64,000 bases of DNA from a phage: the sequence record PZ534534.1. One strand, 5' to 3'. Shown here piece by piece: positions 6,090 through 54,146 of the stretch. Each line of letters begins with the position of its first letter. Positions within the stretch are counted from its first letter, which is position 1. The notes beneath the pieces are model-generated. The model was not told the DNA's origin and did no database searches. It saw only the letters and a list, made by a program, of their open reading frames with translations. The position numbers and the translations under genes were made by a program.

Positions 6090-6100
6090 GGCGGCGAGAT

Positions 6101-6787
6101 ATGGCAGAGATTAAGTCGGATGTTAACCACATCCACACTCTGCCAGATTTTGTTCAGGGAGGTCTTGACTACCTGCCTGGAGATTTTCTGGCTGAGAAGG
6201 TTAATTTAGTCACATTCTTAACCGTATACCTTAAAAGGTTGGAGGATGTTGATAAGATGCTGGTAGGTTTGGCTGAAGGAAGATTGCTTAACAATGCCAG
6301 CGGAAGATACCTTGACGAAGTTGGTAATCAACTTGGTATTCTTAGGAATGGACTTTCAGATGCTGATTTTCGTGCCACACTAATTATTCAGCAGGCCGCA
6401 GCATCAAGGGGCGGGACTCGCGAAGATGTCATCTCCACCTTGCGACAATTGTTCGGAAGAGACAATTTCGATACGTGGAAAGGAGACAACTTCAGGTTTG
6501 ACATAAATATTAGAAAAACTTGCTTTGACATATTGCAGTCTATCGATCAGATCTTAGATATGCTACCATTACCTTGTCATTTGCGTCTTACAGAATCGCA
6601 AGGGCAAGCTTTTGGTTTTGAAGGGGACTCTACAGCTCTTGGCTTCGGATCAGTGTGGGAAGAAAACCAATTCGGAGTTGGTGGGCTGGCTACTTTGCTG
6701 TATGTTCCTGACGTAAGACCTGATTGGGACACCACAACCATTTATTGTGAAAGTATTACAGTAAACGCAACTAGACAGGAGGGTTAA
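6101..6787 (+). CDS. tail protein (possible P2 gpI-like baseplate component)
   Basis: 228 aa ORF directly following baseplate-J-like gene; call by synteny only. Confidence 0.3.
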   Translation: MAEIKSDVNHIHTLPDFVQGGLDYLPGDFLAEKVNLVTFLTVYLKRLEDVDKMLVGLAEGRLLNNASGRYLDEVGNQLGILRNGLSDADFRATLIIQQAAASRGGTREDVISTLRQLFGRDNFDTWKGDNFRFDINIRKTCFDILQSIDQILDMLPLPCHLRLTESQGQAFGFEGDSTALGFGSVWEENQFGVGGLATLLYVPDVRPDWDTTTIYCESITVNATRQEG

Positions 6788-8859
6788 TGGCAACAGCTAT
6801 TTTTAAACCTTACCGTGATTACTCTACAATGGCTGCACGGTTTCATTACCGCACAGTTCAGGATACTGCCGTTCCTGGTAGGGATTATAATCATGTTGAG
6901 GGTGATGTAACTATCCCAATTGGGGCAACCAGTATTGAGATCCCAGTGGAAATTGTTGACAAATTACCCAACAGGTTGCCAAGAAGCTTCTTTATGGAGT
7001 TTTCATCAAAATCTCAAGGGGTGATGATTGGAACACAAAGGGCGAAATGTACAATAGTTTCAGATGAGAATCTTGACAGGATATCTTGGGATACTGTTGA
7101 GGAGAGAATGTTTCACCCAAGGTATTGGGTTACAACTACTCAGCAGACTGAAAGTACCTGTATTGTTGCAGATAACAACTGTTGTATTAACCGTTTAGTG
7201 TCAAGAACATATGGAGGTATGGCTGGGTGCATTTGGGAAACAGTTGACAAGTATGACCATTTCGGTATTGGGTTTGATGATCACTATGAGATGAGAAACA
7301 CCAAGCTTTGGTTCAGAATGTCAATAACCAATGCCAGCAACTTCTCCACCCCTGAAAAGATGATTATGACTGTAGACCTTGTTGATGGCACAATCATCTA
7401 TGTTCCTTTAGCTCAATATGCTGTCAGCATCTCAGAGGATAAGAATGTTGCAGAGATTCATATTGATTTCGAGGACTGCGTCGGGATGGATCAGAACAAC
7501 AACATGATGGGTGTTGATCCTCGACAGGTGAGAAGGATTTTAATACCGCTTATGCCTAAAGACTGGGTAAGTAATAGCACAGACCCGAGAACGGAAAATG
7601 TAGAGTGTGAGTTGCGCCTAGATCTGCTCCAGCCAGACACAGGCTGGAAAATGATGCAACTTAACAATATTCAGGTTAAAGAGCACGACGTTGGGATCTG
7701 CACCGCATATGACGATATGTGGAACGTATCTCCTTTAAGGGTGTTGAACAATATCAAGCGTCTGGGCTATACCGGAACCATAAACCATTATGTTGGTATG
7801 AGTCATTATTATGACTACACATGGTCAGGAACCCAATGGTCTATAAACAGAACAGGGGCGCTAAACGCTGCAGCTTATAAATGGCATGATGATTTTATGT
7901 ACAATGCCAAACGACATAACTTCGACGTTATGCAATCTGTAAGTTTTGAGCTTTTCAGCGATGCCTGCCCGTTGGAATGGACCCAAAGAGACTGGAACGA
8001 TAACTACGCTAAAACAGGGTATACACCCTGTAGCTACCTCCTGTCTCCAACCATTGAAGAGGGTATGAATTTCCTTACTGCAGTATTTAAGAATTTTGCA
8101 TCAGCCGCTATGAGAAACAACCTGCCAGTGATTATGCAGGTTGGTGAACCGTGGTGGTGGTACAATACCGATACTCGTAGACCTTGTATTTATGATTACC
8201 CTACAAAGCAGGCGTTTTATGATGAGACAGGTGAGTATGCATTAGATATTGGGACTATTGACGATCCTAAAACTGGCGGTGTTTACGACAAGTATGTAGC
8301 ATTTTGTCGTGGTAAGCTTGGCGCTCGTATTGCGGCCATTTCAAAGGCAATAAAGGCACACGCTGCATCAGCTCAGATGACAGCTCTGCTGTTTTTCCCA
8401 ACCATTATGGAAACAGAGCTTACGCAAAAGCTGAACCTTGCTGACCAATATAAAAAAGAAGCAGGTGCTCTTGATTTCTTCTGCACCGAGTGCTACGATT
8501 GGGTGATGCAGGGAGGTATTGAAAAGGCAAAAGAGTCTGTAAACATACCTATCGTTAAGTTAGGTTGGCAACCGTCTGAAATACAATACCTTGCAGGGTT
8601 CGTTCCTAGTAAAGAGCTTGCTCCGGTATATGGCTACGACCCAACCAGGAATTACCAAGAATTTTTATGGAGATGTATCTGCGGAAACATGGCAACCATA
8701 GAGTATAGATACCCTGAGGTAAAACAGTATGTGTGGGCATACCCGCAAGTAATGTCTGACAGCATCACTGTTACAGCCAGAGATTCTACCGTGCTTCATA
8801 TGGGGCAGGTTGCTCTGAAAGGGTATGTAGAAGATGTTGTCCCTCCAGACTTCTCATAA
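6787..8859 (+). CDS. tail-associated protein with N-terminal Calx-beta-like domain
   Basis: 690 aa; N-term GRDYNHVEGDVTIPIGATSIEIPVEIVD fits Calx-beta pattern; start overlaps upstream stop. Confidence 0.4.
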   Translation: MATAIFKPYRDYSTMAARFHYRTVQDTAVPGRDYNHVEGDVTIPIGATSIEIPVEIVDKLPNRLPRSFFMEFSSKSQGVMIGTQRAKCTIVSDENLDRISWDTVEERMFHPRYWVTTTQQTESTCIVADNNCCINRLVSRTYGGMAGCIWETVDKYDHFGIGFDDHYEMRNTKLWFRMSITNASNFSTPEKMIMTVDLVDGTIIYVPLAQYAVSISEDKNVAEIHIDFEDCVGMDQNNNMMGVDPRQVRRILIPLMPKDWVSNSTDPRTENVECELRLDLLQPDTGWKMMQLNNIQVKEHDVGICTAYDDMWNVSPLRVLNNIKRLGYTGTINHYVGMSHYYDYTWSGTQWSINRTGALNAAAYKWHDDFMYNAKRHNFDVMQSVSFELFSDACPLEWTQRDWNDNYAKTGYTPCSYLLSPTIEEGMNFLTAVFKNFASAAMRNNLPVIMQVGEPWWWYNTDTRRPCIYDYPTKQAFYDETGEYALDIGTIDDPKTGGVYDKYVAFCRGKLGARIAAISKAIKAHAASAQMTALLFFPTIMETELTQKLNLADQYKKEAGALDFFCTECYDWVMQGGIEKAKESVNIPIVKLGWQPSEIQYLAGFVPSKELAPVYGYDPTRNYQEFLWRCICGNMATIEYRYPEVKQYVWAYPQVMSDSITVTARDSTVLHMGQVALKGYVEDVVPPDFS

Positions 8860-19931: not shown

Positions 19932-20339
19932 TCAGTCCTCGCATTTAACAAATTTTTCTACAGATCCACCAAGCACAGCTTGTTGTTTAATGGCACTTTC
20001 TTCATCATAGTGGATAGATTTATGTTCCGTACCTCCAAACTTACCTGTGTGGAAGGTGTGCACCCAAATCTCTTTAGGAAGGGATTTATTCTCTTCCTCC
20101 ACCAACTCCCACATACCCCACAAGTGATCTGCGATATCTCTGATGAAATATCCCTCACCGAGGTTTGTATTCACACTATAAGCTGATTCGTGATCTCCGC
20201 AAATATAACGGAAGGCAGTGTACTCTTTACCTGGTGTGAAGTGAGTGTCCATTAGTATAGCTGTTAAAGAATAAGGGTCTCGAAAGCCTAAGAACTTTAG
20301 TTTAACAATTTCGACATTTACATCCGCAAGATTATCCAT
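19932..20339 (-). CDS. hypothetical protein
   Basis: ORF-track start 20378 lies inside a promoter; internal ATG at 20339 has AGAGGAG RBS, so start refined. Confidence 0.4.
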   Translation of the reverse strand: MDNLADVNVEIVKLKFLGFRDPYSLTAILMDTHFTPGKEYTAFRYICGDHESAYSVNTNLGEGYFIRDIADHLWGMWELVEEENKSLPKEIWVHTFHTGKFGGTEHKSIHYDEESAIKQQAVLGGSVEKFVKCED

Positions 20340-20369
20340 GACGATCTCCTCTGTTCGGTTGGTGAGATA

Positions 20370-20398
20370 ATCATACATAGATCTGGTGTTGGTGTCAA
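20370..20398 (-). promoter_or_regulatory. sigma70-like promoter (minus strand)
   Basis: TTGACA-N17-TATGAT on minus strand upstream of the refined 20339 start. Confidence 0.45.
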
Positions 20399-41586: not shown

Positions 41587-42321
41587 ATGAACGAGTTCAG
41601 AGACCACTGTGTAGCCAACCACCTGTGGTCAGAGATACTGGAGTATGACGGTCAAAATCTTTTTTGGAAGATAGACATTCTGGCAGGTAGCGGTGTAGGA
41701 TATGTTAAAACTTCAGCAGGCTCCAGAGCTGACAAGGGGCAAGATGCTGATGGCAGGCCTGTAGTTAGTCTAGGAAAGCATTGCACTAAAGGTGCCCACG
41801 TCATAATCTGGGAAATGTTTAACGGCCCTGTACCGGAAGGGTATGAGGTTGACCACATCAAGGAGATAAGGGAAACAGGTGGTGTGGCTGATAACAGTAT
41901 TCAAAATTTGCAACTACTCGAGCCCACAGATAACAAAAAGAAAAGTTGCAAGATACCTCGTAGCAACAACAAATCTGGCAGGGTCGGGGTGCACTATTCT
42001 GAAGAAAGAGATGCATGGATAGCTCAAGGCACAGACTCTGTAGGGGAAAGGGTCTGGCTAGGCCAGTACAGAACTTTTGAAGAGGCAGAGTGGGCAAGAA
42101 AGTTCTTCGAAGATAATGGTTTTTCGCACAAGAGTGGAAGAGCCGTGCAGTATAATAATACCAGCGGTTGCTCAGGGGTGAATTGGGATAAAACCCATGA
42201 AAGATGGGTAGCCAGAATTTATGTAGATGGTAAAAGGAAATGCCTTGGGTATTTCAAGAATAGGGACGATGCAATAGCTGCAAGAAAGAATGCTGAGAAG
42301 AAACAGGAGGGGACAGTATGA
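41587..42321 (+). CDS. free-standing HNH endonuclease with AP2-like DNA-binding repeats
   Basis: HNH core GAHVIIWEMFNG...EVDHI...NSIQNLQLL; C-terminal GVHYSEERDAW-type repeats. Confidence 0.55.
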   Translation: MNEFRDHCVANHLWSEILEYDGQNLFWKIDILAGSGVGYVKTSAGSRADKGQDADGRPVVSLGKHCTKGAHVIIWEMFNGPVPEGYEVDHIKEIRETGGVADNSIQNLQLLEPTDNKKKSCKIPRSNNKSGRVGVHYSEERDAWIAQGTDSVGERVWLGQYRTFEEAEWARKFFEDNGFSHKSGRAVQYNNTSGCSGVNWDKTHERWVARIYVDGKRKCLGYFKNRDDAIAARKNAEKKQEGTV

Positions 42322-44741
42322 GTAATTGGTGCTTCGATCTGGAGGCCTCTGGGCTTTTGGAAGACCCAGATCTTTATTATCACTGCGGTCTGTTTAAAGA
42401 GCTGAATAAGAACCGTTTTATGCTGTTCCTTCCTCTAAATGACCGCACACACTACTCCGAGGAGGATATAGAAAAGGCCAAGAACTTCATTCTGGCAAAG
42501 AAAACTCTTTATAAAGATTTTGAAGTTCGCATAGCAGATTTTTCGGAGTTGGAAGGTTGGCTTACAGGCAATTCCGACTGGTCACCAACAGCTTTGAACT
42601 GCCATAACTGCTACAGTTATGACTTTATGCTGATGGAAAGATTATCCGGTATTCATTTTGATATGTTCCGTGATCCTAAATGCATGGGGACTATCAACGA
42701 CCACCAGGTTAACCTGTTTGATACGTTGGCGATGAGTCGAATTTTGTGGCCTGATCGCCCTTTACCAAAAGGTTGTCCGGACTCTGTATTCAACCCGGTT
42801 ACTAAGAAAATGCAGCCTGTTGGTCCTCACGGCCTTATGGCATGGGGCTACGCCCTTGGTAACCAGAAAGTTCAAATTGATGACTGGCGCGATCTTCCGT
42901 TGTGGAAGTATGTGGATCGTGTATTCGAGGACGTTATCATCCAGGAGCTGCTCTGGAAAGAGCTGGTAGCGGAATCAAAAGGTGTATTCTACGGCAAATC
43001 TGACATGCAGAACTTTATGTACGATCCTGCCAAAGAGAAGCCGAAAGGGTTCAAGAAGATCACCTGGAAGAACGCATTACGCCGAGGCATGCTGCAGCAC
43101 TTCCTGATGGAGCTGCAGGCCCGTCAGGGTGTGTATTTCGACATAGACGGGGCTATTGCTTTACGTGACCGCTGTGATGCGTGGATGAAAGAGATCGCTG
43201 ATCGTGTTGAACCTCAACTTCCTTTAAAAGAGTTATCAATATCTCAGCGGCCTAAATTCCCTGAAAAGCCGTTCAACCAAGATGGGACAATTTCCAATAA
43301 TGGCTGGAAATGGTTAAAAGATAAGCTTGGCTACCCTGTAGACATGAGCGCTTTAGAGTTCAAAGCCCCACCTAAGCGAGCATTTACCTCTACAGGAGAT
43401 GTCAGTAAGATAGGGATAAAATGGTGTGAAGAGATGGGCTGCAAAGACCCCGATAAGATGGCTGATTTCTTGAGAGGCTATATTAAGGGCACCTCCACAC
43501 CACAACCTTTACCTAAAGAGCTAATGGATCAGGCAATAAGTGATCTACAGCAGAAGCGAATGCCGGACTGCAAGATACCTATGAAAATCAGCAACCAGGA
43601 CGACATTAAGCGATACCTGATCAGTGCTGGTTGGCTTCCGACAATGTGGAGAACTAAGGATGTAACTAAAGACAGCAAGAAGAAAGCTCTACCTGATGCA
43701 GATGTTGATGCACGAGTATATGCATATATGGACGAGCTTTTAGAGTCAGAGTATTGTGACCTGATTATCAACTTCTGGAACAAAACTGATGCTAAGTTCC
43801 AGACAACCGTGCACAAGTTCCGAAGCTTTCCTAACTCCGAAAGGATTAAAAAGGAAGTATTCGGGAAAATACGTAGAAAAGCTAGGGCACTTATTACTTC
43901 TCCGCAACTGAAAGATACGTTTGGACACCTATGCCCGAATCTTGAAAAATTGAACGGAGAGATGGCTAAAGATATCGTCTTGTGGTTATCATTGCGAAAC
44001 CGCAGATCGGTCCTTGATCCAATCAAGGAGGATAAGGTTGATACTGGTCTTCTTAATCACCCACGTTTGAAGATTGACCATAAGCTTCCTGCTAAAAGTT
44101 CTGGGTTAACAAACACTTCACGACAGAAACACAGTATTTGTGCAAACATGCCTAAACCATCTCCTAAAGTGGTTATGGGTAAAGAGATGCGTAGTCTGTG
44201 GGGTGTTCCTCCTGGATACTTTCAGATCGGTATTGACGGGTCCAACTTAGAGCAGCTTATCGGGGCTTGGGGTGCCTTTGAGTTCGACAACGGCTTGTAT
44301 TATGATGTTGTAAGTAACGGGGACGCACACCAAAACAATGCTGAGGCATATACAAAAGTAGCAGGCAGAGAGGTGTCTCGTAACGACGGTAAACCTATCA
44401 CGTATGGGGTTATGTACGGGGCACAAAAAGATAAAGTTGCAGATATGCTGGACATCTCTCCAGAGTTGGGACAAAGGGTAATCGATGCACTTTGGGATGC
44501 CAACCCTGGTCTTAAGGGGCGTAAAGAGGATCTGGAGAAATTCTGGGAAGCAACGGGTAAGAAGTTTATCTACTCTTTTGATGGTCATGCTATCTGGACC
44601 CGATCTAAACACTCTTTACTTAATGCATACCAACAGAATGGTGGTGCATCGCTGTGTGACTTAGTTGGGATACTCATGCACCACCAAATGGTGAAGCGTG
44701 GGTGGTACGATGAAGGTGTCCGTCGTATTATCTATTACCAT
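42318..44741 (+). CDS. DNA polymerase, family A, exon 1
   Basis: Exo I motif FDLEASG; motif A IDGSNLEQ; motif B RNDGKPITYGVMYG; frame ends ..IIYYH then in-frame stop inside intron. Confidence 0.65.
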
Positions 44742-45584
44742 AAATAACATTGTGGCTTCATAGAGTGATCTATGTCGAATAACCTCTTTAATTGACGGGA
44801 AAGCTAAGTTGACTTTTACACCTGAGTATGGTAAAAGCTCAATATGCTAATCCGCAGCGAAGACTAAAGGGGTGTAGTTAAAATGGCTAGAACAGCTGAT
44901 TATCACGGGTATACCGTGTTTGATGATGGAACAATACCTTTATCGAAACGTGATCATACAACAATGTTTTGTTTTGATAATGGTAGAGGTTACCTTTGCG
45001 TAACCATGCTAATCGAGGGGAAGCAGTGCACAAAAGGTGTCCACCACCTGGTTGCTGAATGCTTTGTATCAAACCCGGATCCTGAAAGGCTCACATGGGT
45101 GAACCATAAGGATGGGAATAAGTACAACAATGCATACTGGAACCTGGAATGGACCACCCCTGGTGGAAATATCAAGCACGCCTATGATAATGACCTCAGA
45201 GTAAGGCCAGTTGGTGAGTATAATGCCAACGCTGTGCTGACAGAAGATGAGGTAATAGAGATTTGCGAACTGTTGCAGAGTGGTCTACGACAATGCGAGA
45301 TTAGGGATCTTGGATATCCTTATGAGACCGTCAGGGCTATAAAGCAAAGAAGACAGTGGAAACATATCTCTAAAAACTACACCTGGTAGTAACGTTCAGA
45401 GACTATCGAAAGCATAGCTCCAACACAGGTTGGTGTGAAGAAGCGAGTAGAGTAGGCCAGCAAGTGCGGTCGAAATGGGAGGTGCCTTGTTACCAAGGCA
45501 GTGAGGTAGTCCGATCCATACAGGAAACTGTATGGCTATGCACGTAATGGTGCGGGGTAGCTTAACGACCTACCTGAACAGATG
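44742..45584 (+). mobile_element. group I self-splicing intron in DNA polymerase gene
   Basis: Exon ends in U; GTGG guide-like sequence at 44752; GTTCAGAGACTA at 45394 and TAGTCC at 45507 (P7-like); ends in G; splicing restores YHDE. Confidence 0.65.
44883..45389 (+). CDS. intron-encoded HNH homing endonuclease
   Basis: GVHHLVAECF...WVNHKDGNKYNNAYWNLEW pattern typical of phage HNH homing endonucleases. Confidence 0.7.
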   Translation: MARTADYHGYTVFDDGTIPLSKRDHTTMFCFDNGRGYLCVTMLIEGKQCTKGVHHLVAECFVSNPDPERLTWVNHKDGNKYNNAYWNLEWTTPGGNIKHAYDNDLRVRPVGEYNANAVLTEDEVIEICELLQSGLRQCEIRDLGYPYETVRAIKQRRQWKHISKNYTW

Positions 45585-45938
45585 GATGAGTACCAACTTC
45601 AGGTCCCTGACACGCCTAAGTATAAGACTGTGTACACCTTCGACACAATTGAAGAATTGGAAGCATTTAAGGCAGAGCAGGAAGCCAAACTTCATGTGTT
45701 CGACGGTCATAAGTACAAAAAGGCACGCAAGGATGAGGACGGAAACGAAGTGGTTGACAGAGACGGAAACACGGTGTACGATCCTATCCTGAACGATGAC
45801 GGAAAGCTTGAACTTATCTGGAGCCCTGTGGGTGAAATGGTGGTGCATTGCTTCTGGCAAGCTTCTAAAATGATGGGAGTCCCGTTCCAGATCACAGGTG
45901 AATACTTGTGTGGTCGTAATTGGGGTGATTGTCACTAA
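45585..45938 (+). CDS. DNA polymerase, family A, exon 2
   Basis: Begins DEYQLQV, completing motif C HDE; C-terminus GRNWGDCH matches terminal His signature of T7-type polymerases. Confidence 0.6.
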   Translation, partial: DEYQLQVPDTPKYKTVYTFDTIEELEAFKAEQEAKLHVFDGHKYKKARKDEDGNEVVDRDGNTVYDPILNDDGKLELIWSPVGEMVVHCFWQASKMMGVPFQITGEYLCGRNWGDCH

Positions 45939-45987: not shown

Positions 45988-46272
45988 ATGGTAGTAGAAC
46001 CAACAAAAACATTTACATCCATGACTATTCCTGTTATTATGCAGGTGGAGTGTGTTCAGGTATCTCAAGTGTGGCCTGGCACCAAAATCCCAACAGGGCC
46101 TGATTTCTTTCAGGTTGGGAAAGTGTACAATGTCTGGAAGGCACCAGATTGTTACCCTTTCATTAAAGATGACCGTGGAATGTTGTGGTATCTTGGAAAT
46201 GATTTGACACTGCACCTTGGGAATGCTATTATTGCAGTATTCAGACTTAACAAGAAGGAGACCGATCAATGA
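45988..46272 (+). CDS. small protein, paralog family member
   Basis: ATG 45988 after AGAGGAG; KVYNVW...DDRGMLWY pattern shared with neighbouring small ORFs. Confidence 0.4.
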   Translation: MVVEPTKTFTSMTIPVIMQVECVQVSQVWPGTKIPTGPDFFQVGKVYNVWKAPDCYPFIKDDRGMLWYLGNDLTLHLGNAIIAVFRLNKKETDQ

Positions 46273-46496
46273 CAACTTTGGTTAAAGCTACTTTTGTAGA
46301 AGAAAAGATGACAGACCTGTCCTTCTTTAAAGAAGGAAAGACCTACGAGGTTTATTACGATAAAGATCGTGCAAACAAGATGATTAAAGACGAGGAAGGG
46401 ATTGCCTGGTTTATCTCCCATCTGGCAAACGGTGAGTATCATATCTACGGAACCACCCTGCTTGCCAAGTTTGTAGCTGTTGAAGAGGACCTATGA
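46269..46496 (+). CDS. small protein, paralog family member
   Basis: 75 aa; KTYEVYYD...DEEGIAWF pattern. Confidence 0.4.
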   Translation: MTTLVKATFVEEKMTDLSFFKEGKTYEVYYDKDRANKMIKDEEGIAWFISHLANGEYHIYGTTLLAKFVAVEEDL

Positions 46497-46687
46497 AAGT
46501 AAAGTATCTGGCTGAGGGTATGAGTAGGTATTTCACCCTTGGTGAAGAATATTGGCCCTTTACAAGCAACGGCGATGTCTACGTGAAAGATAATTTCGGC
46601 ACTCCGTGGTTTCTGCACTCTAATGGGCTGGGATACTCCATTTACTGTGGTGCAGTGAACAACACAACCCTTGCAGAGTTCGTTTAG
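46493..46687 (+). CDS. small protein, paralog family member
   Basis: 64 aa; DVYVKDNFGTPWF pattern. Confidence 0.4.
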   Translation: MKVKYLAEGMSRYFTLGEEYWPFTSNGDVYVKDNFGTPWFLHSNGLGYSIYCGAVNNTTLAEFV

Positions 46688-46697
46688 AGGAGGTAGA

Positions 46698-47069
46698 ATG
46701 TTAGTAAAAGGTACCCACACAGTCAAACAACGTATCGAAGTTGAGATCGATGACTGTGAGCTGAAGCATATTTTACGATCATGCTCCAACGTTTTGCTCC
46801 TCAGTATTCTCCAGGAGCGAGTGGAGAACGAGTTCTTAAATGCACTGGCAGGCCGCCCTGGTGACTTCTGTGTGCGTAAGCGTGGTGACAACAAGTCATG
46901 GCTGTGGGAGATAGACGCAGAATGGGATTACCACAAAAATGAGGGTATAGATGAGCCTATTCGTGAATTGACAGACAAAGAGGTTCAGACGTACAATGAA
47001 GTTTGTCATTGGGCAACACGCCAACAAATTTACCTCGACCCTGTGTGGCTGATTGAAAATAGTCATTGA
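46698..47069 (+). CDS. hypothetical protein
   Basis: ATG 46698 after AGAGGAGG RBS; 123 aa. Confidence 0.4.
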   Translation: MLVKGTHTVKQRIEVEIDDCELKHILRSCSNVLLLSILQERVENEFLNALAGRPGDFCVRKRGDNKSWLWEIDAEWDYHKNEGIDEPIRELTDKEVQTYNEVCHWATRQQIYLDPVWLIENSH

Positions 47070-47145
47070 CAAGAAGTAAGATTAGATATAAGATGCTTCA
47101 CACAAACAGAGAGTTGATTTTTAAATAATTGAGGAGACTGCTAAA

Positions 47146-47400
47146 ATGAAAATCATGTTGAAACCAGCATGCGTTGCAAATGACCGAGCTTTTAAAGATT
47201 GCACGCTTGGTGCTATTTATGAAGCAGAGTTTTGTGAGAACCCTTTAGTAAAAGCCCTTTTGGAAGAAGGGGCTCCTTTATCACAAGAAGAGATTGATGA
47301 GCTGGAAAACTCAGCCCAGTGCCTTACCTTTAAAGATGATGAAGGAGATTCTGTCTGGTGCACCGTTAACGAAGTGGTTTTTGTAAAACCTGAACATTAA
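47146..47400 (+). CDS. small protein, paralog family member
   Basis: 84 aa; AFKDCTLGAIY...DDEGDSVWCT; GAGGAG RBS. Confidence 0.45.
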   Translation: MKIMLKPACVANDRAFKDCTLGAIYEAEFCENPLVKALLEEGAPLSQEEIDELENSAQCLTFKDDEGDSVWCTVNEVVFVKPEH

Positions 47401-47403
47401 TAC

Positions 47404-47432
47404 TTGACAAGAAAGATGGGGCCAGATATAAT
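47404..47432 (+). promoter_or_regulatory. sigma70 consensus promoter with palindrome around -10
   Basis: TTGACA-N17-TATAAT; GGGGCC (47418-47423) and GGCCCC (47433-47438) flank the -10. Confidence 0.55.
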
Positions 47433-47463
47433 GGCCCCATCTAAGAAAAAGGAGACCATAGCA

Positions 47464-47724
47464 ATGACCAAACAATATCAACGAATTAAAGCCAAGGTTA
47501 AGCCAGACTATCTGGAGAAGGACTCCGCTTTTCGGGACTGCACAGCTGACAAAGTTTACACAGGGGCCGTCCTGTTGAACGATAAACTTGAAGTAGATGT
47601 GCTGGGTAAAGAGGCCGTTATCGAGGATGACAACGGTGACTGTGTTTTCTGCACCACACGGGAGCTAGAAGTCTTAGAATACTTCGGTGAAATCTTCAAC
47701 TCCTTAGACGACGAGGAAGCGTGA
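47464..47724 (+). CDS. small protein, paralog family member
   Basis: ATG 47464 after AAGGAGA; AFRDCTADKVY...DDNGDCVFCT mirrors the 47146 protein. Confidence 0.45.
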   Translation: MTKQYQRIKAKVKPDYLEKDSAFRDCTADKVYTGAVLLNDKLEVDVLGKEAVIEDDNGDCVFCTTRELEVLEYFGEIFNSLDDEEA

Positions 47725-48113
47725 TGAAAAATATTTGGGATATTGATATCTTTGAAGCCTCTAAGCTTGACGGTGCTGATGGAGTTATTATGGTGTCTGA
47801 TGGCAAGGCAACACTAACTTCCGGAGATATCATCTATGACTTGGACGAGCTGGCGCTTCTGAAATCTACCGGTAACACTTTAGAGGAGCGTCTTCAAGGC
47901 TTCGCCTTCAAAGAAGGCACAAATACCGCCATGATGTGCACCACACGGACAGTTCAGGTTGGTAACGGTGTCTATATGATCATTGCTGTGTGTCCTAAAT
48001 TCAGCAACGTCAATAAAGATGATGCTGACGCTGTCAACGATGTGGTTGTTCTCTTCGTGGGTGACGCTATGGCAGATCTGATGAATGCAGGAGAAGCAGC
48101 AAATGAAGACTGA
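47721..48113 (+). CDS. hypothetical protein
   Basis: 130 aa ORF, ATGA overlap upstream. Confidence 0.4.
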   Translation: MMKNIWDIDIFEASKLDGADGVIMVSDGKATLTSGDIIYDLDELALLKSTGNTLEERLQGFAFKEGTNTAMMCTTRTVQVGNGVYMIIAVCPKFSNVNKDDADAVNDVVVLFVGDAMADLMNAGEAANED

Positions 48114-48405
48114 AAACATCACCCCAGCAGGGTTTTTAAAAGTATACCGTGAACTGCTATATACTACAGAGGACAGTGTTCTAGAGTATCCAGAATATCT
48201 TTTGCTGTATAAGTATCTGCAGGAGGCTGGTGAAAATCTGCCAGTTAGTGCAGAAGGTGGTCCAAACTGGATATACAGCGCATGGAGAAAGGTTGACATT
48301 CTCCCAGACCCAGGTAAAGATATGGTAGTTTGGCAGCTTATCAACAACATCGGGATTCCAATCTTTGATGAAGCTGTTAAAATCTATTTTGAACTTGACG
48401 ATTAA
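48103..48405 (+). CDS. hypothetical protein
   Basis: ATG 48103 after GCAGGAG; 100 aa. Confidence 0.35.
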   Translation: MKTENITPAGFLKVYRELLYTTEDSVLEYPEYLLLYKYLQEAGENLPVSAEGGPNWIYSAWRKVDILPDPGKDMVVWQLINNIGIPIFDEAVKIYFELDD

Positions 48406-48422
48406 TATCAGGAGACCTTAAG

Positions 48423-48668
48423 ATGGCTGAAGCAGTTGCTCGCGCAGGACAGAAAGTACGTTGTGTGGAAGTAGGTTTTGGTGGCAAAGGGTGTCAAAAC
48501 TTGACTCAAGGTAAGGAATACGCTGTTATTTCTGGTGGTGGCGACGAGAGTATTGTGTTCGAGGACCACATCCTGGATGCTGAAAACTTTGAAATCTTTG
48601 ACGACGATGGGGATCCGATCACCTGCCTGCTAGACGGGAATTGGGGAACTTTTGAAGTGATTGGCTAA
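48423..48668 (+). CDS. small protein, paralog family member
   Basis: 81 aa; KEYAVISGG...DDDGDPITC pattern; AGGAGA RBS. Confidence 0.4.
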   Translation: MAEAVARAGQKVRCVEVGFGGKGCQNLTQGKEYAVISGGGDESIVFEDHILDAENFEIFDDDGDPITCLLDGNWGTFEVIG

Positions 48669-48678
48669 CAAATACCTA

Positions 48679-48707
48679 TTGTAATTTGCAGAAGGGGATG
48701 CTAAAAT
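48679..48707 (+). promoter_or_regulatory. sigma70-like promoter
   Basis: TTGTAA-N17-TAAAAT upstream of 48752 gene. Confidence 0.4.
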
Positions 48708-48751
48708 AGTGTCTCCTTCTATGTTGTTCAAATAAAATCGGAGATTCCATA

Positions 48752-49117
48752 ATGGAACAAATGAACGATCAAACGTCGGTTGCAATGAACGAGCAAGAAC
48801 AACCTCAAGAATTTTTCTTAGGGTTAAGTAAAGATCAAGTGTCTCTTTTGCTAGTGCTTTCTTCTTTCATGGGAAGACTTCAGGAGCTCACACAACAACC
48901 GGAGGCTGAACAATTATTTCAGGCTCTGCGTGAAGAAGAAAAATATCGTCGTTTGGACTATGCCTTAGGTTGGGTAGCTCAACAACGAGATATGCTAATG
49001 GCCCTCTCTGGGACTACAAGTTTTGCAATGGGGCTGTTGGCTCAAGTTCAGGACAAATTAATTCAAGCAGGGTTTGCACATACGGCAAACACTAACGAAG
49101 AACAAGGAGACAAATAA
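48752..49117 (+). CDS. hypothetical protein
   Basis: 121 aa ORF with GGAGA RBS. Confidence 0.4.
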   Translation: MEQMNDQTSVAMNEQEQPQEFFLGLSKDQVSLLLVLSSFMGRLQELTQQPEAEQLFQALREEEKYRRLDYALGWVAQQRDMLMALSGTTSFAMGLLAQVQDKLIQAGFAHTANTNEEQGDK

Positions 49118-50343
49118 TGAGCGTTATTCAACAATTCGCTAACCCGATGAATCCGCGTGAAACTGTTTTACTGGCTCACGGCATGATTAAACGTGTCAGC
49201 ATCAAGCCTATCAAAGGTGCTGATCCTACAACAGGTATTAAAACCACTGTGTGGCAAGGTAAGAAAATTGAATCCAGCCACACCATCTCTTTACTGATTT
49301 CTGAACTGGATTCCTCTGATAACCTGCTTCAAGGTGGTGAAGAAGTTTGGATCAGCATGGGTGATAAGCTGCTTAAACCTGGTCATCAAGACTCTGTCTC
49401 TGTTAAAATTGATGACAAGTGGGAAACCGTAACGCCGGGATGGATCGTAAATATCCCTTTGAAGGCAAACGAGCATAACGGTAAGACCTATTACAAAGGC
49501 TCACTGGCTAAGATGGTCAAGCTGGGTGCAGGAGAGGCTCCAGCAGCGACTCAGCAGCAAAAACAGCAACAAGGTGCACAATCACAAGGCCAGAAGCAGA
49601 AACCTCAGCAGAATGCCAATCAGGACGTTTTACGCATCTATGGCGATGTGACTCAGATTGTTGGCAACGTGGTTACTGTTAATGACCACAAGATTGGCGA
49701 AGGTGCTATGGTTGTAACTGATGAGCAGCTTAAAGACCTGGTGGTAGGTGGTCGTGTTGCAGCCATTGTTGACAAAGACACCGGAAACATTATCAGTGGT
49801 TTCAAAGCCTATCCCCCTAAGGCAGAGAACGGCACTCAAGGCTCTGGTGGCAAGCGTAAATCCTCTTACGACCCTATTGGTGTGGAGACGGGACATAGCA
49901 TCAACGCGTTGCAAATCATCCTGGATCGCGGGTTTAAGGTAGACGACCCACTAGGTGTGGCTAAAACACTGCACGTAGTCACCATTGAGCTTAAGAAAGA
50001 GTATGCTCAAGCCACCAACCGAACCGAAGATGAAGTAGGTGCCAGTGTCGGTAATGCGGTGTTGAACGCTTGTCGCCGTATTGACAAGAAAACGAAAGTT
50101 GAGGATTTTGCAGCGGCAATTACTGCAGAAGCAAAAGATGTCTTGACTAATCTGGCTGAGCCGTTGTACGATTGGATCAAGAACGGTGCTGGGTCCACTG
50201 ACCATCAAGAACCTCAAGCTGCCAAGCAGGAAGCTGCTCCACAGCAAAACACTATAGACGCTCCTCCTGTAAATGATGAGGAAGATGACCCGATGGATCA
50301 GAATCCGGCGCAGTATGAGTTCGATGACTCGATCCCTTTCTAA
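49117..50343 (+). CDS. single-stranded DNA-binding protein-like
   Basis: Gln/Gly-rich linker and acidic C-terminal tail ending DDSIPF (compare E. coli SSB DDDIPF); 408 aa. Confidence 0.5.
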   Translation: MSVIQQFANPMNPRETVLLAHGMIKRVSIKPIKGADPTTGIKTTVWQGKKIESSHTISLLISELDSSDNLLQGGEEVWISMGDKLLKPGHQDSVSVKIDDKWETVTPGWIVNIPLKANEHNGKTYYKGSLAKMVKLGAGEAPAATQQQKQQQGAQSQGQKQKPQQNANQDVLRIYGDVTQIVGNVVTVNDHKIGEGAMVVTDEQLKDLVVGGRVAAIVDKDTGNIISGFKAYPPKAENGTQGSGGKRKSSYDPIGVETGHSINALQIILDRGFKVDDPLGVAKTLHVVTIELKKEYAQATNRTEDEVGASVGNAVLNACRRIDKKTKVEDFAAAITAEAKDVLTNLAEPLYDWIKNGAGSTDHQEPQAAKQEAAPQQNTIDAPPVNDEEDDPMDQNPAQYEFDDSIPF

Positions 50344-50351
50344 GGTCAGTT

Positions 50352-50930
50352 ATGAAATGCAAACGTTGTGGGGAGGACAAGGAGGCCTCCGACTTCTATA
50401 CCAGCAACAAATCAACGTGCAAAGAGTGCTGTAAGAAGGCCAGCAGGGAGGCTGACCAATTTGCTAAAGACTCTTCAGAAAAAGGTGTAATACGTGTGTT
50501 GTACAAGACTCAAAAGTGCAACAGCAAGCAAAGAGGTCACCCTCCTCCGACTTACACCAAAAAAGAGTTTAAGGAGTGGCTATACCTGAACGGTTACAAA
50601 GAGTTGTATGATCAGTGGGTAGCCAGCGGATACGACAAAAGGAAAAAGCCTTCTTGTGACAGGATAGATGATTTCAAAGGGTACTCTTTTGATAATATCC
50701 GTTTAACGACCTGGGGAGAAAATAAAGACAAGCAGACAGAGGATATTTTGTTACATAGAAGCACCAGCGGTAGACGGTGCAAAAATGTAAGGAGGTTGGA
50801 CATGAATGGCAACGTTCTTAAAGAGTGGGTATCCCACAACTCTTGCAGCAGAGAAACCGGAATATATGTTGGTTACTACATTCATGAAAAAATTCCAGCT
50901 CCCGATGGATACCTCTATGAATACTTCTAA
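50352..50930 (+). CDS. Cys-rich putative nuclease (HNH-like?)
   Basis: N-terminal CxxC...CxxCC cluster; SFDNIRLTTWGEN segment loosely HNH-like; 192 aa. Confidence 0.3.
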   Translation: MKCKRCGEDKEASDFYTSNKSTCKECCKKASREADQFAKDSSEKGVIRVLYKTQKCNSKQRGHPPPTYTKKEFKEWLYLNGYKELYDQWVASGYDKRKKPSCDRIDDFKGYSFDNIRLTTWGENKDKQTEDILLHRSTSGRRCKNVRRLDMNGNVLKEWVSHNSCSRETGIYVGYYIHEKIPAPDGYLYEYF

Positions 50931-50945
50931 CATCTAGTTAACATA

Positions 50946-50973
50946 GCCCTGCCCGAAATGGTGGGGCATTTTT
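50946..50973 (+). terminator. rho-independent terminator
   Basis: Near-copy of 38651 terminator: CCCTGCCCGAAATGGTGGGG followed by CATTTTT. Confidence 0.5.
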
Positions 50974-50992
50974 GTATAAGGAGATCTGAAAA

Positions 50993-51409
50993 ATGACATT
51001 AGAAGATATCATTGTTAAACCTGAGAACTATGACCAATACAACCTGTCAACTCAATCTGTAGACCTTGGATGCGCCACAGTCAGTGCATGGCTGGTTAAC
51101 GGAAAAGAGCTGGATAAATGCTTAGAAGCTCACATGTCTATTAACAAGTTTCTGGATGAAAATACTCACTGGCTTGAAGGTGCAGGCGTATATGCTTCAT
51201 GGTTGGAGAGTATGGGATTCGACTACCAATCTGAAGAGGGGTGGTGGAGCTATTTAGCTATCTGCCCAGAGACGCTGCAATGCTTCATGAAATATTCTGA
51301 AGATTTGGAGTACCGGGCGGTGGTTGATAGTGCTATTGCCCGTTATAGCCGTAAACCTTTTTCCCACGACATTAAAACTGTGGAAGAATTTGTTGAAGTT
51401 TTCTGTTGA
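50993..51409 (+). CDS. hypothetical protein
   Basis: 138 aa ORF with AGGAGA RBS. Confidence 0.4.
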   Translation: MTLEDIIVKPENYDQYNLSTQSVDLGCATVSAWLVNGKELDKCLEAHMSINKFLDENTHWLEGAGVYASWLESMGFDYQSEEGWWSYLAICPETLQCFMKYSEDLEYRAVVDSAIARYSRKPFSHDIKTVEEFVEVFC

Positions 51410-51505
51410 CACAAGTTGAAAGGTGTGTAATTATAACTTCATAGAACGGGAGGACGTGATGAACGAAGAAAACTGGGATGTATAACTAACAGGAGGCCAC
51501 TGCCC

Positions 51506-51703
51506 ATGATTTATCGAATCCGTGTAAGAGAAGATGCACCAGGCTGTTACTTTGACTGGCGTGGGTGGTGGTTTCTCCACCCGATGGATGGACTCACAGA
51601 TAGAATGCTGGATGCTGCCCTTTATACAGATACCGACATAGAATATAATCTCTATCTGAAGGACGGTATAGATAACGGTCTATTTGAAGCAATTCCTGTG
51701 TAA
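51506..51703 (+). CDS. hypothetical protein
   Basis: 65 aa ORF with AGGAGG RBS. Confidence 0.4.
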   Translation: MIYRIRVREDAPGCYFDWRGWWFLHPMDGLTDRMLDAALYTDTDIEYNLYLKDGIDNGLFEAIPV

Positions 51704-51771
51704 GAGACTGTGATAGCCATGTTTTATGATCTTCCTGTAGCACCACCACCTGTTGAACCCGGAGAACTAAG

Positions 51772-52197
51772 ATGATCTATGAAATGCCAAAACTGATTCG
51801 TGACGATGCCCAAAACGCTCACACCATTATTATGGGCAAACGCATGGATATTATTTGTCATAAAGATTTCTGGGAAGGAAGTTACTTCACAGAGTATTTT
51901 GGTAAACTGGACAATGGTCTGCTGATCCAGTTCTACACCGATGCGGAAAACAACATTCCCTGGGAGTTCGAAACTGAAGATGTCCATAAACTTTTCACCT
52001 TCCTCGGTATTAAGGTTAAGGCCAAGTTTGAAGAAGGTGAGTGCGACGATTGTGGATTTTATGAGGTAACAGATTTCTACCTTCCTAGCGGTAAGAACCT
52101 TTACTATGAAAGCCACTTCGGTAACTCCAATATGCCACAGTGCTGGACTGAGTTTTTTGAAATTGCGGAAGAGGAGCTGGCTTACCGTGATTATTGA
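51772..52197 (+). CDS. hypothetical protein
   Basis: 141 aa ORF. Confidence 0.4.
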   Translation: MIYEMPKLIRDDAQNAHTIIMGKRMDIICHKDFWEGSYFTEYFGKLDNGLLIQFYTDAENNIPWEFETEDVHKLFTFLGIKVKAKFEEGECDDCGFYEVTDFYLPSGKNLYYESHFGNSNMPQCWTEFFEIAEEELAYRDY

Positions 52198-52645
52198 TAC
52201 TGTAGAGGGAGATTTAATCTCCCTTTTTAAGAGTGGTGCTGGTCACCTGATCCACGGTTGTAACTGCTTCCACACAATGGGCAAGGGTATAGCAAAACAG
52301 ATTGCCCGTGAGTTTCCTCAAGCACTGTCAGCCGACAAAGAGACTAGATACGGTTGCCTAAGTAAACTGGGTGCGTTCTCCCGATGGGAGCACTTATCTC
52401 CGATAGGTATTGTCTACGGAATCAATCTATATACCCAGTTCTACCCAGGACCTAATGCTGAGTATTTCTCAATCCTGAAAGGCTTTGAGCTAGTCAATGA
52501 AGTATTCAGCGGATCGACTTTACCATTCTACATCCCTAAGATCGGGTGCGGCATAGGCGGTTTGAAGTTGGAACACGTAGAGGACGTTATTAACCTTGCC
52601 ACTTTCGACATAGATATTGTCGTGGTGGAGTACAAAAAGTGTTGA
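52187..52645 (+). CDS. macro domain protein (ADP-ribose binding/processing)
   Basis: GTG start; IIDTVEGDLISLF...GHLIHGCNCFHTMGKGIAKQI fits macro-domain N-terminal and Gly-rich motifs. Confidence 0.5.
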   Translation: MIIDTVEGDLISLFKSGAGHLIHGCNCFHTMGKGIAKQIAREFPQALSADKETRYGCLSKLGAFSRWEHLSPIGIVYGINLYTQFYPGPNAEYFSILKGFELVNEVFSGSTLPFYIPKIGCGIGGLKLEHVEDVINLATFDIDIVVVEYKKC

Positions 52646-52670
52646 CGACCATCTTCTGAGGTGATATAGT
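52642..52670 (+). promoter_or_regulatory. sigma70-like promoter
   Basis: TTGACG-N17-TATAGT overlapping macro gene stop. Confidence 0.45.
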
Positions 52671-52896
52671 TTCCACGACAACTAAGAGAGGAGAGCACTG
52701 TGGAGACTAAAATCTTAATTCTTGCTGTGGTAGATACAACCGAAGGAGCTATATTCGAATCTGCAGGAGGGTATTTCTACCTACCATACGGAAAAAGAAC
52801 TTCCGAGCCAAGTAAAGATTCAATCCTCAAAGTGTTCCCGTGTGCTTTCTGGCTGGAGATTTTGGTATAAGATTGCAGAGGATTTGGGAGAGAATT

Positions 52897-53091
52897 ATGA
52901 GAAACAAGAAAGAACTTTACTCCGGTGAGTGGATCAACGATCAACAGGTGGGAGAGGTAACCTGCTTCCGATGTTTTACCAGGTACAATCTTAAAACTGC
53001 ACCAAAAAGTGTTCCAAAGACTGACGGTTACTACATAAAAGAACCTCATTGCCCAAAATGTAAATGCCGATTGTACTGGAGCAATCTGTAA
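52897..53091 (+). CDS. zinc-ribbon protein
   Basis: ATG 52897 after GGAGAG; CFRC...CPKCKC (two CxxC pairs); 64 aa. Confidence 0.4.
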   Translation: MRNKKELYSGEWINDQQVGEVTCFRCFTRYNLKTAPKSVPKTDGYYIKEPHCPKCKCRLYWSNL

Positions 53092-53095
53092 GAGG

Positions 53096-53123
53096 TTGAC
53101 ATCTGAAAACTGCAGTGTATAAT
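53096..53123 (+). promoter_or_regulatory. sigma70 consensus promoter
   Basis: TTGACA-N16-TATAAT upstream of 53155 gene. Confidence 0.55.
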
Positions 53124-53154
53124 ATACGCATAAACTAACAGAGGGTGATGTATT

Positions 53155-53346
53155 ATGGTAATTTTTAACCGGGATGGTATCATAGTTAGACAGCACCCGT
53201 TCCTTGAATACTATCAAATTGAGCAATGGTGCTACGGGGATTGCAGTCACTCCTATGGGCAAAGTTGGGGATATCGTGCAGTTTTTGAATCCACAGACCT
53301 TGACAAAGTAAGACAGAAAGTTTTAGAACTTATTAACAACAAGTGA
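53155..53346 (+). CDS. hypothetical protein
   Basis: 63 aa ORF with GAGGGTG RBS. Confidence 0.4.
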   Translation: MVIFNRDGIIVRQHPFLEYYQIEQWCYGDCSHSYGQSWGYRAVFESTDLDKVRQKVLELINNK

Positions 53347-53356
53347 GTATCGTGCC

Positions 53357-53689
53357 ATGGTAACATTGGAAAGACGTAAAGCTATCGCCGCCACACTGGC
53401 AGACATCTTTTGGGATTGCAACTTAAAAGATACCCGAAATTGTGGCGCATCTGTAGATGTATTATTCCCACGGCCTACTATTGTTGCAATGGGCAACCTG
53501 CTCGATGTGGTATATGGAGCATGGGACAAGGAAGGTGGATTCTATATCTGGCAACCTGACTACGGGACTTGGAAAGAGGTTAGTGGTTCTTCGGACTTCA
53601 CTCCTGCAGTGGCTAAAATGGATGGCTGGAAAATCTATGTCGGTAACGACATGGAACTGAAAGGCGAAATTGTTTACTGGTTACCTTAA
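53357..53689 (+). CDS. hypothetical protein
   Basis: 110 aa ORF. Confidence 0.4.
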   Translation: MVTLERRKAIAATLADIFWDCNLKDTRNCGASVDVLFPRPTIVAMGNLLDVVYGAWDKEGGFYIWQPDYGTWKEVSGSSDFTPAVAKMDGWKIYVGNDMELKGEIVYWLP

Positions 53690-53710
53690 GAAAGTCCAGG
53701 AGATAAAGTT

Positions 53711-53956
53711 ATGAACAAAGGGTGGACATTTGTAGACGGCGTTAAAAACATGCCTCTAGGAAAGTATATTGTAGCCATGGCAGATGAGAATGGCAAGGTT
53801 GATTTCGGAGTTTGCGAGGTTGTTCTTGCAGGATCTGGTGACTATGCTCACAAAACTGGGATAATTAACGGTCATTTCTACTTTGATTACAACCCTGTTG
53901 TGGCGTATATGGCTATGCCAGAGTTCGAGCTCCCAAAGGAAGGTGCAGATGTTTAA
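53711..53956 (+). CDS. small protein, possible paralog family member
   Basis: 81 aa; GKYIVAMADENGKVDFGVCEV pattern; AGGAGA RBS. Confidence 0.4.
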   Translation: MNKGWTFVDGVKNMPLGKYIVAMADENGKVDFGVCEVVLAGSGDYAHKTGIINGHFYFDYNPVVAYMAMPEFELPKEGADV

Positions 53957-54146
53957 GCTTAAATCTGCATGGAACATCGCTGTGGGGGACGAGATCCGTA
54001 TCCCAGGTGGAAAGACCATTATGAAAATATCTCGTATCGAGTACGAAGGTGATCGTGTATTTCATATCTTTGCAGAAGATGGTCGAGAAATTTATATACA
54101 GGCAGGCTCTCACATCTATATTCGTAAGAAAGGGGAGGACAAATGA
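53949..54146 (+). CDS. hypothetical protein
   Basis: ATG 53949 after AAGGAAGG; 65 aa. Confidence 0.35.
   Translation: MFKLKSAWNIAVGDEIRIPGGKTIMKISRIEYEGDRVFHIFAEDGREIYIQAGSHIYIRKKGEDK

Follow-up and report, generated by a model that had tools for sequence, protein, structure and literature searches.

Do the small open reading frames (ORFs) in the replication module of rV5-like phages belong together, and if so, what might their products do? We addressed this question in the window, that is, the whole 64,000-nucleotide stretch of phage DNA analysed (sequence record PZ534534.1), which comes from a Vequintavirus (rV5-like) genome. The region in question, at positions 45,988 to 53,956, shows 96-97% DNA identity to more than 100 Vequintavirus myoviruses of E. 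coli, and every gene under those matches is annotated as hypothetical. An earlier reading made from the letters alone (the sequence-only reading) had proposed that seven small ORFs here, the last with some reserve, share a pattern and form a diversifying family of possible inhibitors. All seven, named A to G below, are present on the plus strand and have annotated counterparts in rV5-like genomes. Our analyses suggested that six of them arose by tandem duplication and divergence of a single small beta-barrel domain, about 60 residues long and of the SH3-like fold class, very probably so for A, B, C and F and probably so for D and E. That the six serve as early, protein-binding accessory factors in host takeover or counter-defence is our best hypothesis for their function, to which we give a probability of about 0.45. 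The genes are as follows, with rV5 gene numbers assigned by position.

Gene A, 45988..46272, plus strand: 94 residues, rV5 gp219; small beta-barrel of the type of the A, B and C trio (ABC type), with an N-terminal extension of about 35 residues.
Gene B, 46269..46496, plus strand: 75 residues, rV5 gp218; central to the ABC trio; the product is predicted to be a beta-barrel of six strands in which the beta1-beta2 loop is long.
Gene C, 46493..46687, plus strand: 64 residues, rV5 gp217; ABC-type member.
Gene D, 47146..47400, plus strand: 84 residues, rV5 gp215; probable divergent member in which a helical insertion of some 25 residues separates strand 2 from the DDEGD hairpin.
Gene E, 47464..47724, plus strand: 86 residues, rV5 gp214; close paralogue of D.
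Gene F, 48423..48668, plus strand: 81 residues, rV5 gp211; tied to the ABC trio through external tandem-repeat proteins and to D and E directly.
Gene G, 53711..53956, plus strand: 81 residues, rV5 gp198; family membership rejected.

Similarity Among the Six Proteins

The products of A to F share an aromatic-x-x-G-K-x-Y strand that leads to a D-D/E-x-G-D hairpin and then to W, F or C. In its fuller form the domain signature comprises a first strand often with K-C-V, a [FW]-x-x-G-K-x-Y-x-V strand and a hydrophobic-x-D-D-x-G-D hairpin before the same closing residue. Identity from paralogue to paralogue is 19-38%. Smith-Waterman comparisons with 500 shuffles gave z-scores of 11.1 for A-B, 6.3 for B-C and 11.5 for D-E, and the pairs A-C, D-F and C-F were borderline (p 0.016-0.05). 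The sequence-only reading had called the 47146 and 47464 products (D and E) close paralogues, which agrees with their score, and the strings it quoted for them, AF[KR]DCT and DD[EN]GD[SC]V[WF]CT, are correct.

Orthologue alignments were built for 21 neighbourhood genes, and all 210 pairs were compared with hhalign. The top five pairs were D-E (99.5% probability), A-B (70%), E-F, D-F and B-C, every one of them inside the list flagged earlier. Column-shuffle controls gave z of about 4 both for D/E against F and for A/B/C against D/E, and the score of D/E against F (21.4 over 51 columns) was matched by none of 100 shuffles. Against unrelated local families, z stayed at or below 2.4 for all three profiles (A/B/C, D/E and F), two genes (g7 and g22, discussed below) aside. 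Seven positions, C19, Y25, D64, D65, G67, D68 and C72, are invariant across D, E and F, and a K-x-x-C-V first strand is common to D, F and many external repeats. The direct similarity between A/B/C and D/E spans just 14-28 columns, and HMMER searches with profiles from the window copies alone did not join A/B/C to D/E/F; that connection emerged solely from the exhaustive search described below.

Gene G behaved differently from the other six. Against all members and profiles its z was below 1 and its hhalign probability at most 0.5%, and after repeated tests without similarity to any member or profile it was rejected from the family. As far as sequence comparison goes, G is unrelated to A-F, so that the proposed common pattern stood for six ORFs and fell for the one at 53711.

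Relatives in Unrelated Phages

An exhaustive HMMER search with the A/B/C alignment against 1.84 billion representatives recovered divergent B and C orthologues and four Pfam-less proteins with tandem copies of the motif: P0093 (346 residues, four copies), P0094 (571 residues, five), P0096 (181 residues, two) and P0097 (179 residues, two). Three further large hits, P0089 (ankyrin), P0092 (beta-helix) and P0095, were discarded as apparent false positives caused by repeats. The external repeats resemble hybrids of the window proteins, for example GDVIKCISSSGYDDYFKEGKEYTLVPYDSKNKAVCITDEEGDNQAVTC. A profile of 13 such repeats, all from unrelated phage proteins found with the A/B/C profile and none from the window, was compared with the window families by hhalign. 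It matched A/B/C at 97% (expectation value, E, 7.5e-11), A alone at 92.5% (E 4.7e-7), C alone at 93.6% (E 2.1e-7), F at 93.6% (E 2e-7 over 49 columns, z 15.6) and D/E with E 0.0036 (z 8.3); among the controls, G reached 0.2%, g22 1.0% and the other 13 families at most 0.5%.

Further searching of the loci that encode the external proteins yielded more members, including an insertion-free D-like domain, MKARCIDTSDSMADLTLGKVYDVEECPRDDDMYSVVDDEGDSVQLF. An enlarged profile of the external and additional members, from which D and E were excluded, matched the D/E family with a probability of 60-65% (E 6-8e-5, z 12-15), and all 15 neighbouring control families stayed at or below 1.4% (G 0.5%). All of A-F are therefore matched by a profile built without the tested protein; G is not (0.2-0.5%), and g22 remains at 1.0-1.4%. 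The groups are also bridged by the N-terminal domain of L015_10264, which has no insertion, reads DLTLGKVYDVEEC...VVDDEGDSV, and is matched both by the superfamily profile (8e-6) and by the D/E profile (0.036). By these shuffles, controls and profile searches, the similarity of A-F is real and not compositional, the question that the alignment and profile check proposed with the sequence-only reading was meant to decide. A, B, C and F appear with high confidence to be homologous, and D and E are, with somewhat less assurance, divergent members that carry a helical insertion.

Each window protein already has its place in the PHROG database, in families 12922 (A), 12623, 12802 (C), 12544, 11936 and 4927 (F), all of "unknown function", as are the cross-hit families 3523, 3249, 10169, 16833 and 17459. 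There the window families are stored as separate, unconnected and unannotated entries, with no record of their mutual link, of tandem-domain proteins or of a fold. Our external proteins cut across these entries: P0094 and P0096 match F's family (2e-18 and 6e-10), P0093 and P0094 match C's, and the tandem-repeat proteins jointly match phrog_3523, phrog_4927 and phrog_12802. The rV5 genome paper and its supplements make no mention of genes A-G, and we found no earlier report tying these genes to one another or to the fold of Gp54 described below. With this result the known class of small phage accessory proteins of SH3-like type gains a further family, as yet without a name.

The domain occurs in unrelated phages both as single-domain proteins and as tandem proteins of two to five copies. 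All four of the multi-domain relatives that were looked up lie in early or replication modules, and the genes beside external relatives encode DnaB, primase, RecA, Prim-Pol and a D5-type primase-helicase. On two unrelated phage contigs, L015 (2535-4668) and L013 (8001-9716), proteins carry four to five tandem domain copies, and in L015 two such genes are adjacent. Elsewhere the domain forms the N-terminal part of fusions with DUF3310 and DUF1642 domains (L015 10264-10686, L016 9932-10372 and L011 4424-5065). Three word-seeded searches of 5.8 billion proteins (with B, with D/E/F and with A/B/C) returned only Vequintavirus orthologues and frameshifted copies, and tblastn against 50,697 phage records matched only 118 Vequintavirus genomes. 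In Mydovirus Ro1, phage TH18 and Seunavirus EspYZU12, the syntenic region that follows the polymerase contains no family member.

Predicted Fold, Gp54 and DUF7244

Structure models cover B and D. Both are predicted SH3-like barrels, with a five-stranded or five-plus-one architecture and structural matches to SH3 domains, which places them in the SH3-like small beta-barrel class. Structure prediction had been proposed with the sequence-only reading as a test for a common fold; within the class, the B model is six-stranded and the D model matches five-stranded SH3 domains. The B model, with its long beta1-beta2 loop, can be superposed on PDB entry 9AXB, that is, Gp54 of the Escherichia phage Bas11 (JohannLBurckhardt; phrog_7421, Drexlerviridae), and the A, B, C branch is accordingly predicted by modelling to share the rare Gp54-type fold. 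Gp54 differs in several respects: sequence identity to the window protein is 15%, the virus family and genomic position are different, and YHSGLTW stands where the acidic DDxGD hairpin would be. With the A3 alignment against Gp54 alone, E was 0.15. A PDB sequence search with the family profiles gave no match.

Gp54 of Bas11 is a small, non-essential protein whose only known activity is to switch on the bacterial immune sensor CapRelSJ46 (PMC11578894). It binds the sensor directly (dissociation constant 800 nM) through beta2-beta5 and the beta1-beta2 loop; in doing so it unfolds in part, and its strands extend the sheet of the sensor. Its normal role has been speculated to be the inhibition of another defence system (PMC11578894). 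Through the B model Gp54, so far a structural singleton, would gain candidate structural relatives.

A Pfam scan of all seven window proteins gave nothing above threshold, and no Pfam catalytic domain was found in them or in 25 superfamily members. Among Pfam families, DUF7244 (PF23896) alone was matched by three or more of these 25 (four, at E up to 1, including bas11_0041). Its best window match was F (14 bits, E 0.053, with a gathering score of 27 bits); A-E had no match. In the other direction, the superfamily profile weakly matches the DUF7244 protein bas11_0041 (E 0.0013), which alone passes the DUF7244 gathering score. DUF7244 resembles our family: it too is a small phage beta-barrel of one domain, its first strand reads MKVKCVE, it has a G-x-x-Y-E strand and a K-D-E-S-G hairpin, and the profile matches are weak but reciprocal. 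It differs in location, standing beside the Drexlerviridae lysis cassette, whereas the window genes lie in the replication module with no lysis genes nearby. DUF7244 has been placed in the SH3 clan, and a role in lysis has been speculated (PMC13164509).

Selection, Charge and Copy Number

The ratio of nonsynonymous to synonymous substitution rates (dN/dS; pairwise NG86, six to seven genomes) was 0.014 for A, 0.18 for B, 0.10 for C, 0.085 for D, 0.12 for E and 0.14 for F, at dS of about 0.2-0.4 in the same genomes; for comparison, the polymerase gave 0.015 and G 0.25. A-F are under purifying selection, somewhat relaxed, and are not diversifying within the genus. The genes are retained in about 114 of 118 related genomes by tblastn, although frameshifted or truncated copies occur, such as the shortened B of WalterGehring. 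A divergent Vequintavirus-like contig of 137 kilobases from an E. coli assembly (L014; GCA_012894635.1, AATLQU010000010.1) holds four extra B-like copies at 5989-7349, interleaved with orthologues of A, B and C, two of them in gaps without a called gene. Because of these four additional copies, the array changes by duplication and loss between lineages. The term "diversifying" therefore holds for copy-number turnover and for the deep divergence of the paralogues but does not hold within the genus. The L014 array is also interrupted by an Ead/Ea22-like gene. B-F are acidic, with isoelectric points (pI) of 4.05-5.0 and net charges of -2 to -11.

Promoters and Gene Starts

A consensus scan of the region found 32 sigma-70 promoter-like sites, where 15.5 ± 4.2 were expected. 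Three of them, all strong, bear on the family.

46204..46232, plus strand: sigma-70-like promoter with 11 of 12 consensus positions and an extended -10, inside the 3' end of A and upstream of B.
47066..47094, plus strand: sigma-70-like promoter upstream of D; in position it matches the promoter P220 annotated in rV5.
47404..47432, plus strand: perfect consensus sigma-70 promoter TTGACA-17-TATAAT (12 of 12) directly upstream of E.

From such sites we infer early expression from host-type promoters. The -10 hexamer of the promoter at 47404 lies inside a perfect 11-base-pair inverted repeat (47414-47442, AGATGGGGCCA...TGGCCCCATCT), which could act as an operator or, in the RNA, fold into a hairpin at the transcript's 5' end.

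The stop of A overlaps the start of B by 4 nucleotides, as does the stop of B the start of C, and the A start at 45988 is consistent with the 285-nucleotide coding sequence (CDS) annotated in relatives. For E, many GenBank records use 47431; 47464 is the better supported start because the consensus promoter runs to 47432 and 47464 is preceded, 9 nucleotides upstream, by an AGGAG.

Proposed Function and Alternative Explanations

We propose that A-F would be produced early from host-type promoters and would serve as acidic binding modules for protein partners, with no enzymatic activity. The conserved motifs would mostly determine the fold, with the glycine-containing G-K-x-Y strand and the tight acidic DDxGD hairpin comparable to the distal hairpin of SH3 domains, and the variable surfaces and loops would carry specificity. 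Each paralogue would then have a protein target of its own, from the host or possibly from the phage. As host-takeover or counter-defence accessory factors, the proteins could double as triggers for bacterial immune sensors, compare Gp54 and CapRelSJ46. We favour host takeover or counter-defence because Gp54, which matches the fold, binds a host immunity protein directly, and we favour a protein binder over an enzyme or a nucleic-acid binder because of the acidic pI and charge and the lack of a Pfam catalytic domain. The suggestion of the sequence-only reading that families of this kind are inhibitors of host or defence proteins is plausible on circumstantial points, namely the early sigma-70 promoters, the acidic pI, the variable array and the predicted Gp54 fold. 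T7 Ocr is a helical DNA mimic. It offers a functional analogy only, being likewise a small, acidic, early and non-essential accessory protein, with no known sequence or fold relation to the family. The authors of the Gp54 study cite Ocr as the paradigm of small early proteins that both inhibit and trigger defence (PMC11578894).

Several points weigh against this proposal. No member of the sequence family has an experimental function or a known partner, and barrels of the SH3-like kind have nucleic acids, peptidoglycan and metals among their ligands as well. The within-genus evolution of A-F is conservative and does not resemble an arms race. No Vequintavirus transcriptome was found in the literature, and the promoters are consensus matches only. 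In sequence, the connection to Gp54 is weakly supported: the B family matches the nine-member Gp54 family with E 7.9e-4 and 25% probability (reached by none of 60 shuffles), and the Gp54 family gives 1.5% against the A/B/C profile, 1.4% against the enlarged profile and nothing against A or C alone. The D model resembles five-stranded SH3 domains, does not have 9AXB among its top 60 matches and is of modest confidence (predicted local distance difference test, pLDDT, 76; predicted template modelling score, pTM, 0.57). Close homologues of Gp54 fail to trigger CapRelSJ46 (PMC11578894); since, in addition, Gp54's own role is not established, similarity of fold predicts nothing specific.

The six proteins might instead be replication-accessory nucleic-acid binders that work with the adjacent polymerase, helicase-primase and genes resembling single-stranded DNA-binding protein (SSB). 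Barrels of the SH3-like, Tudor and KOW types are able to bind DNA or RNA, and such a role would account for the relatives in replication modules elsewhere. We nevertheless consider it unlikely, given the strong acidity of B-F (charge down to -11), whose sequences show no evident basic patch, the differing copy number between lineages, and the absence of the family from the syntenic region of sister genera with the same replication genes, which points away from a core replication function. Standalone SH3 modules that bind the cell envelope or peptidoglycan, as proposed for DUF7244 proteins, would fit the weak matches to bas11_0041, to F and to four of the 25 members, together with the SH3 clan placement and the speculated lysis role (PMC13164509). 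However, the sequences show no evident signal peptide or membrane segment, the genes sit in the early and replication region away from lysis genes, no window protein reaches the DUF7244 gathering score, and the lysis role of DUF7244 is itself only proposed, so that this explanation seems very improbable. That A-F are dispensable filler ORFs without a function of their own is scarcely credible: they are genus-restricted at the BLAST level and broken copies exist, but purifying selection at the dN/dS and dS values given above largely refutes it, the genes are kept in nearly all related genomes, and the domain is conserved across unrelated phages.

A different kind of objection concerns the family itself. 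Small beta-barrels tend to have a G-x-x-Y strand together with an acidic D-x-G hairpin, and two or three unrelated families, ABC (with or without F) and D/E, could have converged on them. The short direct overlap of A/B/C with D/E would suit this explanation, as would the HMMER results with the enlarged profile, which are weak for D (E 0.07) and E (E 0.52), and the two models, one near 9AXB and the other near five-stranded SH3 domains. Yet three independent profile comparisons (A/B/C with D/E, F with D/E, and the enlarged profile with D/E) align the same motifs in the same register at z 4-15, and 15 neighbouring small-protein families never rose above z 2.3. The insertion-free domain of L015_10264 is matched from both sides, and the K-x-x-C-V first strand recurs in D, F and many external repeats. 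Convergence thus strikes us as an improbable account, and common descent of A-F remains the preferred one.

Six orphan genes, hypothetical in more than 100 rV5-like genomes that include therapeutic candidates and the BASEL reference phages Bas51-58, become one testable unit, and the family reaches unrelated phages, where it also occurs in multi-domain form. Should any member prove to bind a defence protein, the family would usefully mark accessory and counter-defence regions in phage genomes. A bolder and rather doubtful idea is that FxxGKxY/DDxGD barrels and Gp54-type six-stranded barrels form one widespread phage "immune-interface" class that has so far escaped recognition. Its members would be duplicated and shuffled in early regions, as single genes, arrays and multi-domain proteins, to bind and neutralise defence or takeover targets of the host, and bacterial sensors such as CapRel would have evolved to recognise them. 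If so, the rV5 array would be a six-member counter-defence battery.

Candidates Outside the Family

Three further ORFs showed some likeness to the family. The 65-residue product of g22 (53949-54146) looks SH3-like, with an AEDGREIY hairpin and z 3.5 against A/B/C, and was not accepted at 1.4% against the enlarged profile. Gene g7 (47724-48113) and D can be aligned along 28 columns (z 3.3), and at 0.1% against the enlarged profile the membership of g7 is unsupported. A short CTTR-containing segment is common to g7 and E, and P0049, on a metagenomic contig, is a natural 131-residue E-g7 fusion with a deletion between two CTTR sites. The minus-strand ORF 19932-20378 (148 residues, HFTPGKEYTAF) gave E 0.0017 with the first external profile, which weakened to 0.12 when the enlarged one was used, and was not accepted; it may be related very distantly or match by chance.

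Genomic Surroundings

Genes A-F lie between an intron-split DNA polymerase gene and a conserved gene pair for proteins of 121 and 408 residues, annotated as putative SSB in one record, which bears out the location in the replication module given by the sequence-only reading. The remaining neighbours in the window have no known function, except for a homing endonuclease and a macro-domain protein. The polymerase gene consists of exon 1 (42318-44747) and exon 2 (45582-45938), separated by an HNH/NUMOD-type homing endonuclease ORF (44883-45389). A joined polymerase CDS is annotated in RudolfGeigy and WalterGehring, and S127 BCL3 has an uninterrupted gene of 2778 nucleotides; being present in some genomes and absent in others, the insertion is a mobile intron-like element. 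A second homing endonuclease, endonuclease VII-like and of 192 residues (50352-50930, phrog_1035), lies between the SSB-like gene and the next gene. It is missing in several sampled relatives, including RudolfGeigy, FV3 and S127 BCL3, which gives rise to the class of genomes covering 93% of the query.

The macro-domain gene at 52188-53087 (Tk.4-like) and its neighbour at 53151-53350 show 68-72% DNA identity to Krischvirus (RB49-like T-even) phages, and the g19 region is 84% identical to Krischvirus LF73P4, a similarity that points to exchange between unrelated myovirus groups. Finally, 16 GenBank records (MG0656xx) named "Campylobacter phage", with C. jejuni as the host, are 94-97% identical to E. 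coli rV5-like phages across the compared regions, and these host labels look doubtful.

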